NCBI GenBank assembly: GCA_000004985.1
Contig: GG738846.1
Reading direction: 5' to 3' (one strand)
Source of the DNA: Naegleria gruberi
Taxonomy: Eukaryota
Length of the DNA stretch: 64,000 nt
Every line of letters begins with the position of its first letter. Position 1 is the stretch's first letter. Below, piece after piece: positions 125-48,360 of this stretch. Below the pieces are notes generated by a model that had not been told where the DNA came from, ran no database searches, and saw only the letters and a program-made list of their open reading frames with translations. The position numbers and the translations under genes are program-made.

Positions 125-787
125 TTACAATTTGTGATCGTCACCCAAACCACCTTGTTTGCAACAATCAACGAAATAACTAACAGATCCCTTTCCACTT
201 CCAGTATTATAATAGGTCTTCCAGTATTGTGCTTGGTCTTGGAGAGATGTCGGAATTGCTGCTGGAATTGTGAATAAATTCAAACGAGCAGCCAATACAG
301 AATATAAGGCACGTACACATTGTGTCCACTTTACACTTTTCCATTCAATACCCATCTTGTTATCTAATTCTTCGAATTTTTTGGCAAGGAAGGGATGAGA
401 GGATGAATCTTGTGAGTTTTTAAATCCAATATCATCCACTGTTTTGTTTGTTGTTAACAGAGATTCCAATAATGAATCAAGTTCAATATGATCATTAAAA
501 AGTGTAAGTGTGTGATCAACCACAAATTGATGATATGAATACAACTAACCTTGCCAAATACCTCCATAATATCCACTTCTATATGTTCCTGGAGCTTGCC
601 CATAGTTTGATTCACACAAAGCAACTCTCTTCATAAAGAGATGAGTATTGCTATTCAACCAGCCCAAACCATCAAGCTCTCTCAATGCAGCATCAACCAC
701 AGCTTCTCCCATATCTTGTGCACTGATCAAAGCACCGACTATTGACAATAATAACAATGCAACAAGAACAACAAGTATTCCTTTCAT
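125..787 (-). CDS. Secreted lysozyme-like (SLT/goose-type lytic transglycosylase superfamily) protein. Proposed model: exon 787..550, intron 549..439, exon 438..125, giving about 183 aa.
   Basis: N-terminal signal peptide MKGILVVLVALLLLSIVGALISA. Motif LCESNYGQAPGTYRSGYYGGIWQ fits the SLT catalytic ES...GxxGxxQ pattern. The two track ORFs 545..787 and 125..544 are in the same frame, separated by a single TAG at 545-547 that lies inside a GTTAGT donor. The proposed 111-nt intron has no AG before its terminal CAG. The start has the cattttttt (AAAAAAATG) context. Confidence 0.55.
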
Positions 788-921: not shown

Positions 922-3900
922 ATGAAGAAAATTATTGCCAATGGAAATGAAAGAAAATTATTGTTGATACATCAAAAATTTGCATCATCAACACTCCGAA
1001 ATTATTCAAAATCATCATCATCACCATCAGCTATTTTTGAAAAACCAATACAATTATTTAATATTGATAAAAGTAATACTCAACTTGCACATTTATTAAT
1101 TAATGATAAGAATAATTTTGGATATAGTATTAATGTTAAATTAGATAAGAGTCCTATTAATTTTCTAACTTATCATCATTTCAATAATTTAATTGTTGAG
1201 AAATTAAATTCATGTTTTAATTATTCACCTTATATTTATCCGAGTATATTTTCTATTGATACTCATCAAGAGGTACAAACATTTCAATTCACAACAAATA
1301 ATCAAAGACAATACAAACAATTAATAGATATATTTAATAATCAATTATTCTTTCCTAATTGGAATTCTAGATATATTGAGGAATTAGTTCTAAATTCATT
1401 AGAAGGTTTGAATGTGTTGAATCATACAGATGGACAAGCAAGATTTTCTAAATCTCTCATCAGTCATCTCTATGACAACACAATACCAAGCTATGAGGAA
1501 TGTGTGAATATTTTGAAAAATACCAATTCGTACAATTTGAGACAAGATTTCGAGTCAAAATATAATCCTAGTAATTCTCTCTTTATTTCTTATGGAGATA
1601 GTGCAGAGATGGTTGTAAAATCTTTGGAAAGTCTTCCAAAACAAACTAATAGTAGCAGTAGAAATGAATTAATTGTGGAGTCATTGAAAGATACCAGTAC
1701 ATTTGAATTTGTAGAACATGTTCCATTCGAGAATAATCTCCCAGAGAATGCCCAATCAAGAATTGCAATTGCATACAAGCTTGATTGTGATATTACAGTA
1801 AGTATCATTGAAAAACTACTACTAGTTTTCACACAACACCAATTAATTATAGAACCAACATGACTATATTCTCTTATCTATTCTGGCAAGATGTCTCCAA
1901 GATACTTATCCATTCGAGTTGGGTAACTTCTCATTGTCTCCACTCCAAATCAGTGGTATTAATGCTTCACACAATCAATGCTCGTTCATAATTGGTGTTG
2001 AAGGTGTTACTAATAATGATTTACCAATTGTAAAGAACAAGTTATTGAGAATGATGGAGAATATCAATACTAGATCTGCATCTCACTACTTGAATCAAAT
2101 TGAAATGGAATATTCTACACTCTTCAATTCAACATTGCGTATTCATGAAATTTTACTTCACTCTTGGGTTTCTGAGCAGAATATTGGTGATTCCCTCTCC
2201 ACTGGTAGTTCAAACTCTCTCATTCAATTGGCGAATATTAGAAAGGAAATTGATGAATGTGGTGGAATTGAAAGGATACTTTCTCAACTTGTTCAAAAGT
2301 ATTTTTCCACTAATAAGAATTATGTACTTCTCACTCAGACAGGAAACAAGAATGTTCATCTCCCTACCATGTCCAAGATTAGTGTGAATCAAAACTTGAG
2401 TTTTGCCTCTAATATTAATGAGAGCTATGATATTGATACTGATAGCTGTATTTCTGAATCATTTATTAGTAATTCTGTAGAGTCATACTTGAATGGTAGA
2501 TTTTTATTCAATATTCAGGAATCGAATGGAGATCTTATTGATATTTCTCTTGTAAAGTATGACAATGTTTTCGTTACAAAGGATGAAAATAGACTCCACG
2601 ACATTATTTATTATTCATCAATAGCAAAACTCATAACTCAACTTGGAGCTCGTGATGCGTCTAGAGAAGAAATGGATGAATTCAAAGAAAAGTACTTCCC
2701 AAGAGGAATACAAACTAGTGTCAAGATTTTACACGACAAATTTGATCCAAATTCTGTAAAGTGTGGTATTGTGCTGAGAACGCAGGTTATTAGAAAGAAT
2801 TTATACAAGGCACTGGATGTAATGGACGCCATGTTATCTGACTCTGAATTGAAAGATATGCCACCTCATTTATTAAATGATGAGCTTATAAAGCATATCA
2901 TTGATGAGGTAAATCAAGAGATATCAGATCAAATTGATATTATTGGGTTGGCTAGATTTTCCTCAGAATCCAAAACTTCTCCAATATCGGTAAGTAGTAT
3001 TTATATTATATCTATTGCTAAAACAATTAAAGAAATTAGAGGATGTTGCTGGTGGAACAACCCATTTAGCATTTTTGGAAGAAGCCAAATTAAAATCCCT
3101 TAAATCATTTAAGAATTATATTTCTCAATTCTATAGACAATTGACAACACGTTTTGGATATAAATTAATGCTTACTGCAAGTTCGAAACATAGGGACATG
3201 GTTTGTCAAGTTGCAAAAGATTTTATGGAATCCAATTCAGACATGTTACAGGAAGAAATACCAGAAAATAACAAATTTGGAAAGGTAATAGAAGCCTCCA
3301 AAGAAAAGAACAGATACATTACCATTCCACCAAATACTATTTTAGAAGGTTCAAGAATAATATGTAGAGGTGGTAAAAGCGTTCCACTAACTGATGACAA
3401 AGCACCTCATTTCTTCCTACTCGCGCAAATATTTAATGAAAAGCTTTTCAAGAATTCAGAGAGTGATTGCCGAGCTCATCAGTCAATTAATGGTTCATTC
3501 TCAATTATTGGAATTACTCGTGAGGACATCAAAATGTTCCTTTATGATCTTGATGAGCAAGTGAGATCATTTGTTGATTTTGCCATTGATGAGATTTCCA
3601 TTGAAGAATTTAATCGTTTAAAGATGAATGTGATGAGAGAATTGGGAGATTCTGTTACAATACCAGCACACGAGAGAGCTACCAAGCTATTCAATTATGG
3701 AATATCCTATGATGACTATTCAAAGTTCAAATCAACACTCTTAAAGAGTACCATTGAGGAATTAAAATCAGCTGCAAATTCCCAATTTGGTTTCCAACAA
3801 GAACAAGGATTTGTGTTAACTGTGATGGGTACTGAGCTTGATACTCCAGATGAAGTTAAAGTCATGTCAAAGGATAGAAATGGTTCTTGGGAAATTGTTG

Positions 3901-22862: not shown

Positions 22863-24353
22863 CTATTTGAGTGATGTATCAGATTGAGTCTTTTCCTTCT
22901 TTTTTGCAATTCCCTCCTGTACAGTTTCGAAAGAAACGAGAACTGTCACTATATCAATTGTAGAGTCTGCCTTAATATTGTTAGAAATGATTACTTTAGA
23001 ATGAACAGTGTCTTCCATTTTCATTTGATCCAATTTTAACAATTTCAAATCATCCAACACTCTGCACATTTCCTTAACTTCAGCATAGGGAATATTTTCA
23101 TTGGTAAAATCTTGCATATAGTCATTAAATGTTCGTATCACATGATCCAGGGAAACAGTCTCGTAAAATACCAATGATGAAATGTCTTCTCGATGTTTCA
23201 ATACAAGATCTTCACTATCAGAGCTCTCTAACAGCTTGTTAAACTGGATTTGTTGTTCAATATTTTGAACAATCGATTGTTTACGAGTCAATACTTCCAA
23301 TAATCGATGTTGGGAAAATGAAAGACTGCTAATAATTGATACTGGATTTCTTGTGGCCAGATCACTGGCAGCAATTTGGAAAAATGATGGAATATTGACT
23401 TGATTGGCATTCTTAAGCATACATAAAGAAATTACATTCTTTATCAATTTCAGAACGTGCCTCATGTCAAACTCTTCAAAGTGTTTTGATATAATCCCAA
23501 TTAAATTTCTATCAAACATTGGTTTTTCTGTTCTCTCAATAAAGGTTTTCAATTTCTCATTCAAAATTATGGTCAAATCAGTTGATGATAGTGGTCTGAA
23601 AATTAAAAGATTTTCATGACTCACAATCTGATTAGTTGTAATGCAAATAAATATACAATTGAAAGAATCAGCCCATTTCTTCAACTGTTCCCTCACTTTT
23701 GGTTTTTCAGTAATTAAACAATCTGCCGAATCCAAAACTATTAATCTCATCTTTTTGCACTTTGTAAATAGCTTGGATGGGGTAATTGATTTTAATTCTC
23801 TCTTATTAAATGACAAGTACAATATCTTACATAATTCTTTCAATGAATCAATTTGATTTGTTGAACAATCCAAAAATGGAATAGTTTCAAGTAAACTACC
23901 ATTTCCTTTCATTTGATTGATAATAAATTTCATCAAGTGAGTTTTTCCACATCCTTCCCTTCCAAATAAATGAATCACTAGGCCTCTTTGTTTTTTGATA
24001 CTATTTTCAATTTTTTGTTTAATATTCTCATACTCTTCCAGTCTTGCTTGGGGAAGAGAATTGAAATTTTCTTCATTAAAATCCTTCAACATTTGCTCAT
24101 AAATTTGTTGAATACACGAGACATTGTTTGTTGAATCGCCTTGTGAACTATCTTGGTTTGATGATTCCGATGATATCACTTTTTGGGAATTGATGACACG
24201 AACTTTCTTCCTAATTGATTGGTTTGATATTTTCCTCTTGTTTTTTTCTGTTACTATAGAATCACTATCACAGTCATCATCGGAAAAAGTTTCCTCACCA
24301 CTGCTACTATCAATGACACCTCGAGCTACAGAAGACCTTGTTCGTGGAGGCAT
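22863..24353 (-). CDS. Cdc6/Orc1-family AAA+ ATPase (replication licensing), 496 aa.
   Basis: Walker A GREGCGKT, Walker B LIVLDSAD, sensor region FICITTN, and a C-terminal helical/winged-helix-like part. The N-terminus is basic and Ser-rich (MPPRTRSS...). Confidence 0.55.
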   Translation of the reverse strand: MPPRTRSSVARGVIDSSSGEETFSDDDCDSDSIVTEKNKRKISNQSIRKKVRVINSQKVISSESSNQDSSQGDSTNNVSCIQQIYEQMLKDFNEENFNSLPQARLEEYENIKQKIENSIKKQRGLVIHLFGREGCGKTHLMKFIINQMKGNGSLLETIPFLDCSTNQIDSLKELCKILYLSFNKRELKSITPSKLFTKCKKMRLIVLDSADCLITEKPKVREQLKKWADSFNCIFICITTNQIVSHENLLIFRPLSSTDLTIILNEKLKTFIERTEKPMFDRNLIGIISKHFEEFDMRHVLKLIKNVISLCMLKNANQVNIPSFFQIAASDLATRNPVSIISSLSFSQHRLLEVLTRKQSIVQNIEQQIQFNKLLESSDSEDLVLKHREDISSLVFYETVSLDHVIRTFNDYMQDFTNENIPYAEVKEMCRVLDDLKLLKLDQMKMEDTVHSKVIISNNIKADSTIDIVTVLVSFETVQEGIAKKKEKTQSDTSLK

Positions 24354-47487: not shown

Positions 47488-48360
47488 TTAAAAATCCAAA
47501 CTCGAGTCGTCCAAATGAGAATCGATATTCACTCTGTCTGATAACAAACTGTTATCATTGAGTGGTTGATCATATTCATCCCCTTCTTCTGTCTTTTCCT
47601 TATTATACAAATCAATTAGTCTTTTCAATATACTATTAATCCTGGAAATATTGACACCTGATACATCTTCCATTAATTTTCCGCCCTTATAAAAGAGAAA
47701 TCTTGGACAAGATTTCCCTCTTACTGAAGCTATGAGAGGTACCCATGATTGCCTGTCAATATCTGAAAACGGATGTTGATTCGACGAGTCAATCACAAGA
47801 GATGACCTCATTGAACGATCTTGCATGCTTTCATCCATACTCTTGGAAAGATTTTCAATGTTTGAAATGTTGAGATTCGAAATATTTGAATCCGATTTTT
47901 CTATTGGGCTGATTGAGGCCATTGGTGTCTCATTTGTTTGCCCCTCCTGTAACACCATTGAATTATTTACAGAGCTTGAAGGAGAAAGAAGGTCAGCAAA
48001 TAGGCTGTCATTTAAATTATTATTTTGCTTTTTTGGAGGTGTTTGTGGAGCTTGTTGTGGAGATGGTTGAGGTGATTTCAAGTTTTTTGTTTTGTATAAC
48101 GAGAGAGGAAAACCAGCATTTTCAAGTGAAGCAATTACTTGATCTGAATTGACACACACGAAAGAAATTGGACAAAATTCATTAGCCTCCAAATATAATT
48201 TTTGAAAGTAAGGAACAACAACCTTACACGATCCAACCCAATCCGTATAAATATCTAGAACGATGATGGAACCGGAATGCAAAGACTTGGTAAATTCCTT
48301 CTCCAATTCTTTAAAGTTGGTTGTTTGAGTTTGAAAATCAATTCTGTGTCCTTTTTGCAT
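47488..48360 (-). CDS. Thioredoxin-fold (TXNDC/phosducin-like) protein, 290 aa.
   Basis: IVLDIYTDWVGSCKVVVPYFQKL (degenerate WCxxC) and C-terminal CPRFLFYKGGKL are typical of thioredoxin-like domains. It lies in tandem with the PDI gene. Confidence 0.45.
   Translation of the reverse strand: MQKGHRIDFQTQTTNFKELEKEFTKSLHSGSIIVLDIYTDWVGSCKVVVPYFQKLYLEANEFCPISFVCVNSDQVIASLENAGFPLSLYKTKNLKSPQPSPQQAPQTPPKKQNNNLNDSLFADLLSPSSSVNNSMVLQEGQTNETPMASISPIEKSDSNISNLNISNIENLSKSMDESMQDRSMRSSLVIDSSNQHPFSDIDRQSWVPLIASVRGKSCPRFLFYKGGKLMEDVSGVNISRINSILKRLIDLYNKEKTEEGDEYDQPLNDNSLLSDRVNIDSHLDDSSLDF

Follow-up and report, generated by a model that had tools for sequence, protein, structure and literature searches.

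The 64,000-nucleotide window analysed here comes from contig GG738846.1 of Naegleria gruberi and is the frame of all coordinates unless another locus is named. It carries, on the minus strand, a gene (125..787) for a secreted lysozyme-like protein of 183 amino acids. The gene runs from an ATG at 787-785 to a TAA at 127-125. Its first exon, 550..787, is 238 nucleotides long, encodes residues 1-79 together with the first base of codon V80, and ends with ...TGG CAA G. The second exon, 125..438, has 314 nucleotides including the TAA, and supplies bases two and three of codon V80 before encoding residues 81-183. Between them lies a spliceosomal intron of 111 nucleotides, GTTAGT...TTAACAACAAACAAAACAG (439..549), of phase 1 and of the GT-AG type; its donor hexamer GTTAGT occupies 544..549 and the acceptor CAG, read from the sequence, 439..441. 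Left unspliced, the frame reads ...TAT TAT GGA GGT ATT TGG CAA GGT TAG: the in-frame TAG (545..547) sits within the donor and would limit the product of an unspliced transcript to 80 residues, while a second open reading frame, in the same frame as the first, runs on to the TAA. Splicing at CAAG|GT...CAG|TG restores a coding sequence of 552 nucleotides, with the split codon G|TG giving Val80, and removes 37 codons, the length of the intron being a multiple of three. A search of the window for a second copy of the gene found none.

A preliminary description of this stretch had called the intron and presented the TAG inside its donor as the main curiosity of the locus, with intron retention and stop-codon readthrough as alternatives to simple splicing. 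Its coordinates, its frame, the length of 111 nucleotides and the interior free of AG are all correct on the minus strand.

The homologues of the protein carry the case for splicing. The closest are hypothetical proteins, with 64% identity in Naegleria lovaniensis and 61% in Willaertia magna; the next, at 40-48% identity, come from corals, a brachiopod and a brittle star. We built two alignments, A1 with 13 sequences and A2 with 71. The codons of the motif GGIWQ, G75-Q79 (551..565), form the last full motif preceding the intron, and the string GGIWQ|VDD continues unbroken across the junction in 12 of 12 homologues in A1 and in about 70 in A2; neither alignment contains any insertion at this point. 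Residues G75-G76-I77-W78-Q79-V80 are at least 90% conserved in the 71 sequences, and D81 is invariant among the 13. Since GGIWQ|VDD is contiguous in the homologues, the intron and its exact boundaries, as first called, are supported: once the intron is removed, the protein is collinear with its relatives. It retains 27 of the 30 near-invariant residues of the family, including residues encoded past the TAG, and the AlphaFold (AF2) model of the spliced product has a mean predicted local distance difference test (pLDDT) score of 93.3. On this comparison of sequences, we take 549-439 to be an ordinary GT-AG intron.

The intron also carries the signals that such an intron should have. Only two AG dinucleotides occur in it, one in the donor and one in the terminal CAG (441-439). 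When the intron body is shuffled by single nucleotides, the procedure used for all chance levels below, an AG-free interior appears in 0.7% of the shuffles; the depletion is real, and is what is expected of a functional intron. A candidate branch site, TTAAC (457-453), fits the pattern YTRAY, with no AG between it and the acceptor, and its predicted branch A, at 454, lies 15 nucleotides upstream of the 3' splice site, within the usual range of 10-40. No splice consensus for Naegleria turned up in a search of the literature, and we counted de novo, across the window, the donor hexamers that stand at the ends of long open reading frames. GTAAGT is the dominant donor, with 13 of its 26 occurrences at the end of a long open reading frame that then meets a stop; for GTTAGT, the count is 3 of 19. 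The donor of the gene is thus near-consensus, agreeing with the local GTAAGT at five of six positions, the one mismatch being at +3. Comparisons of the window and the fetched loci for a repeat, an introner or a duplicate of the flanking exons returned only the match of the intron to itself, so that it is unique there.

How much should be read into the TAG? In an intron of phase 1 with the donor GTTAGT, positions 3 to 5 of the intron spell TAG by construction (N|GT TAG), in the same way that a phase-2 intron with the donor GTAAGT gives NN|G TAA. The TAG is therefore not an independent observation, but an incidental by-product of phase and donor, and the special standing that it had been given disappears. 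The orthologues tell the same story: the first intron of N. lovaniensis reads GGA TA|G TAA GTA, with a stop at the donor, its second intron has a TGA a few codons past the donor, and the intron of one environmental Naegleria contig reads CGC AG|G TAA. We also considered a ciliate-type code, in which TAG would stand for glutamine, and rejected it because N. gruberi uses TAG as a true stop codon, for instance at the end of the gene at 22863-24353, whose product is identical to XP_002682919.

Programmed readthrough of the TAG in an unspliced messenger RNA would produce an isoform of 220 residues carrying the 37 residues encoded by the intron. This reading can point to a length divisible by three and to a frame that is open except for the TAG. 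Both are unremarkable: the former has a chance of 1/3, and 5.6% of the shuffles have no additional in-frame stop. The insert would fall within the family's most conserved motif, parting Q79 from V80-D81, and about 70 homologues, three heterolobosean orthologues among them, all lack it. There is no conserved extension past the stop, this genome uses TAG as a normal stop, and the context TAG TTG TAT resembles, to our knowledge, no known readthrough context. We regard readthrough as barely credible.

The positions of the introns in the orthologues, given here in the codon numbering of the N. gruberi protein, bear on the second alternative. The N. gruberi intron falls in codon V80, in phase 1. The first intron of N. 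lovaniensis has 47 nucleotides and falls in codon Y73, in phase 2 (locus L001, 4216-4262); a second one, of 57 nucleotides, is found near the C-terminus (L001, 4526-4582). Two environmental Naegleria contigs have their intron in codon S71, in phase 2, with a length of 64 nucleotides in one (L016, 1295-1358), the other lying at about 1-30 of L015. The Willaertia orthologue has no intron (L002, 4001-4549). One genus, then, displays three intron positions inside 26 nucleotides of coding sequence, which hints at intron sliding, or at introns gained and lost rapidly, and makes these orthologues a small and clean case for the study of intron turnover.

Under regulated retention, the TAG in the donor would act as an on/off switch for the enzyme, with retained transcripts yielding an 80-residue peptide or entering nonsense-mediated decay. 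The donor, with its T at +3, is below consensus and could make splicing inefficient, and the TAG would end translation of the unspliced messenger at once. However, the introns of the orthologues, from which this one does not differ, regularly meet an in-frame stop soon after the donor, and the AF2 model indicates that the 80-residue product would be without most of the fold. Moreover, the position of the intron is not conserved even within Naegleria, and consequently no conserved regulatory element is implied. Retention as a regulatory device seems to us unlikely, although less so than readthrough.

In a third reading, that of a truncated gene or pseudogene, the TAG would be a true premature stop, and the reading frame beyond it a decaying remnant. 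In support of this, the gene is missing from the N. gruberi proteins of the collection that we searched: neither the spliced product of 183 amino acids nor the truncated reading frame of 80 is present among its 15 billion proteins, and two homology searches returned no N. gruberi entry among their matches. By contrast, three long open reading frames of the window are identical to the RefSeq proteins XP_002682922, XP_002682919 and XP_002682926, the last within one cluster. From these searches, the reference annotation thus appears to lack the gene. Against decay, the two halves of the gene remain intact and in the same frame, the near-invariant residues are kept downstream of the TAG as well as upstream, the canonical GT...AG and the depletion in AG are found exactly where they are required, and the spliced product is modelled very confidently. 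We consider a pseudogene very improbable; what seems absent from the protein set of N. gruberi is a probably functional gene for a secreted enzyme.

We turn to the protein itself. Its N-terminus is hydrophobic and, by inspection, forms a probable signal peptide of about 24 residues, MKGILVVLVALLLLSIVGALISAQ (716..787), as had been noted earlier; in the AF2 model, residues 2-19 are a lone helix with lower pLDDT. The rest of the model has a lysozyme-like alpha-helical fold, and its comparison with the PDB by Foldseek, although weak, points in the same direction. The putative catalytic pair E59-S60 (608..613) is at least 90% conserved in A2, and helix 46-60 has E59 at its C-terminal end, the place of the catalytic glutamate in lytic transglycosylases, with a motif of the G-L-M-Q type, G76-I-W-Q79, about 15 residues further on. 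We compared the family profile, with hhalign, to an alignment of the catalytic domains of MltE, Slt70, MltC, MltD and MltF taken from the genome of Escherichia coli K-12. Although the score is weak, E59-S60 falls on the catalytic ES, and GGIWQ on the GLMQ of the five enzymes; GGIWQ would then be the equivalent of GLMQ in family-1 lytic transglycosylases. The likeness to lytic transglycosylases that had been proposed from ES...GGIWQ thus holds for fold and motifs, but fails at the level of sequence models. The search of the joined protein against profile libraries, recommended in the preliminary description, yields no significant match in Pfam or NCBIfam: the Pfam SLT model (PF01464) is matched neither by the protein at E-values up to 10 nor by the 71 family members at E-values up to 1. 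Library matches were obtained at chance level only, and were discarded: T_hemolysin (E-value 0.017), a cellulase (0.1) and, for one member, Transglycosylas (0.009). A search of the PDB sequences, also done with the family profile, gave nothing significant.

Taken together, these observations make it very probable that the gene contains an ordinary U2-type intron, constitutively spliced, and encodes a secreted lysozyme-like enzyme, the TAG being incidental. The GT-AG intron 549-439 would be spliced out of every transcript, and the TAG would at most make unspliced transcripts end early. The resulting protein would be an enzyme of 183 residues from a divergent and uncharacterised branch of the lysozyme-like superfamily, with a fold nearest to that of the GH23 lytic transglycosylases. 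After removal of the signal peptide, it would most likely cut the glycan strands of peptidoglycan, and possibly also chitin-like polymers of N-acetylglucosamine (GlcNAc), with E59 as the general acid, and could thus help the amoeba to digest or kill bacteria. The analysis supports the boundaries of the intron, through homology, as well as the fold, the conserved motifs and the relatives in phages and bacteria; the enzymatic activity, the substrate and the biological role are what we infer from them.

Several points weigh against this explanation. The argument for splicing is drawn only from homology, and the positions of the introns in the other Naegleria orthologues, being different, do not corroborate it; the T at +3 of the donor is rare among the likely donors of the window. 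On the side of the enzyme, the hhalign link to the lytic transglycosylases of E. coli is weak (E-value 0.019, probability 2.4%), the Foldseek comparison of the model with the PDB is non-significant, with an E-value of about 0.5, and at the sequence level neither Pfam SLT, nor NCBIfam, nor any PDB chain is matched. Finally, the role of endolysin that we attribute below to a phage relative, Gp54 of Klebsiella phage phiKO2, is deduced from the position of its gene.

These phage relatives belong to the PHROG family phrog_3108, labelled "unknown function". The N. gruberi protein matches its hidden Markov model over the full length, with an E-value of 5.7e-16, residues 23-175 being aligned to positions 3-155 of the 160 positions of the profile. 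Searches with tblastn place members of the family in 11 phage records, including an uncultured phage of 636 kb, Shewanella phage 1/44 and a group of N15-like Klebsiella phages. Gp54 of phage phiKO2 belongs to phrog_3108 (E-value 3.7e-53), and its hhalign comparison with the family reaches a probability of 98.4% and an E-value of 4.3e-15, in the part encoded by exon 2.

The genes around Gp54 give a hint of its function. Directly before it comes Gp53, a protein of 101 residues with three hydrophobic segments and a charged C-terminus, which looks like a holin. Gp55 is described as an i-spanin (47583-48048) and the small gene that overlaps it as an o-spanin (48044-48293) (Kongari et al. 2018, PMC6139136, supplement file 5). 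The order in phiKO2 is Gp53, Gp54, Gp55 and the o-spanin gene (locus L018, 2384-3909, in the 47 kb region), and the gene for Gp54 therefore lies where endolysin genes lie, between those of the holin and the spanins. The syntenic genes of phage N15 (locus L020, 3611-4994) are 53, annotated as holin, 54, as lysozyme, and 55, as DUF2514, and the N15 gp54 is unrelated in sequence to that of phiKO2. Gene order thus puts phrog_3108 in the endolysin slot, which is positional support for the degradation of peptidoglycan and not a proof of it. The exchange between N15 and phiKO2 looks like a non-orthologous replacement of endolysins, and would give phrog_3108 a function.

Another viral contig, IMGVR_UViG_3300009104_000231, encodes a protein of 462 residues (locus L006, 162-1550), whose N-terminal part is acidic and whose C-terminus carries the family domain. 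The locus, of 5.5 kb, has no other complete open reading frame of at least 90 amino acids, and a very long one may run off its end. The 462-residue protein may be a virion-associated lysin.

The family is large. A profile search among 1.84 billion representatives of clusters, formed at 50% identity, returns 2,899 clusters at E-values up to 1e-3, and 439 at E-values up to 1e-30. Most members appear to be metazoan. Among 49 long multidomain members, a VWA domain is found in 29 and a chitin-binding CBM14 domain in 11; others have EGF, MAM or LDLa domains. Three metagenome contigs with members look metazoan, judging from their reverse transcriptase, TRAF and death-effector domains, and an open reading frame with a VWA domain lies 150-660 nucleotides downstream of the lysozyme-like exon in such contigs (L012, 6001-7684; L013, 6001-7295; L014, 6001-7919). 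The lysozyme-like exon combined with VWA is a recurrent animal architecture. The statement that such a protein is unusual for a eukaryote was consequently overstated: the family is common among metazoans, in corals, in a brachiopod and in a brittle star, and in other metazoan-like contigs.

In bacteria, members are few: three contigs of metagenome-assembled genomes among 185,579 species genomes. One of these contigs has neighbours that are clearly bacterial by inspection of their sequences (a transaldolase-like protein and kinases), and one bacterial member, P0011, adjoins genes for HU and UvrC. Beside the bacterial homologue on a contig of a zetaproteobacterial metagenome-assembled genome, there is an open reading frame of 669 residues (locus L004, 2456-4465) whose N-terminal half is rich in cysteine and which has a long run of pentapeptide-like repeats (ADLRGANL...).

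A neighbour-joining tree of 75 sequences, computed on 146 columns with 500 bootstraps, groups the four heterolobosean sequences in a clade in 500 of 500 replicates and the bacterial sequences in 466, and makes the two clades sisters in 404 (81%). The tree would fit a transfer between bacteria, or their phages, and heteroloboseans, in either direction, a neighbour-joining tree on one short domain being a weak basis. A lateral acquisition had been suggested at the outset: the link with prokaryotes is plausible, given the sister clade and the phage homologues. It is tempting to go further, and to see the family as an undescribed class of muralytic enzymes made of phage endolysins, a small bacterial clade, heterolobosean enzymes transferred from bacteria or phages, and a radiation in marine invertebrates with fusions to VWA and chitin-binding domains. 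We put this forward tentatively, as an idea that falls just short of being probable; if it is true, the family is an unrecognised class of eukaryotic lysozymes.

Whatever the outcome, the TAG at the splice site is in itself unimportant, a textbook by-product of the phase of an intron and the sequence of its donor. As a new and apparently unannotated member of a lysozyme-like family that is itself uncharacterised, the gene ties together an unnamed group of about 2,900 clusters, which has no model in Pfam or NCBIfam, and a PHROG labelled as having no known function; it also connects that group to the lysozyme fold and, through Gp54 of phiKO2, to the endolysin slot of phages. Should the activity be confirmed, corals and other invertebrates would gain a new candidate class of antibacterial or chitin-active enzymes, and several Klebsiella phages would gain an identified endolysin.

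The neighbouring gene in the window is divergently transcribed: a multi-exon gene on the plus strand (922-3103) begins 134 nucleotides upstream of the ATG of the lysozyme-like gene. It encodes a Peptidase M16C-associated domain (Pfam, E-value 3.5e-6), and consensus GTAAGT donors are found at 1798 and 2990, at the ends of segments of its open reading frame.

It remains to compare the gene and its product with known systems. As an intron with a stop in, or just after, its 5' splice site, the N. gruberi intron is an example of a known situation, and does not differ from ordinary introns of this kind.

With the family-1 lytic transglycosylases of GH23, the protein family shares a conserved Glu-Ser that ends a helix and precedes, by some 16 residues, a motif G-x-x-Q, here in the form GGIWQ. 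MltD of E. coli has GIWQ 16 residues after its ES, a spacing nearly identical to that of the N. gruberi family, and the later YYNTGxG of the family resembles, by eye only, the AYNxG of GH23. The differences are an extra invariant V-D after the glutamine, and two family-specific motifs, YWKxYYN and PLYSxLAARL, that have no alignable counterpart in these enzymes.

Like our protein, the goose-type lysozymes of animals are eukaryotic, secreted, and of a GH23-like fold. Goose-type lysozymes are expected to match Pfam SLT, which the N. gruberi family does not, and the sets of motifs differ. A bacterial origin has also been proposed for the goose-type enzymes (PMC12855814). A lysozyme of Naegleria fowleri, "Nf lysozyme" (A0A6A5BDE0), was considered as a possible identity for our protein and rejected, since it is described as specific to N. 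fowleri and as carrying a peptidoglycan-binding domain (PMC11964265).

The resemblance to phrog_3108, whose members include Gp54 of Klebsiella phage phiKO2 and S144_44 of Shewanella phage 1/44, is of another nature: it is true homology, along a domain of equal size, about 150-165 amino acids, with the shared motifs V-E-T/S, G-x-x-Q-V-D and YWKKYYNTxxGKGT. The identity between the N. gruberi protein and these phage proteins is only about 27-35%, and their settings differ: signal peptides are absent from the phage proteins, whose genes lie in late or lysis regions, whereas the protein of the amoeba is secreted, and its gene contains an intron.
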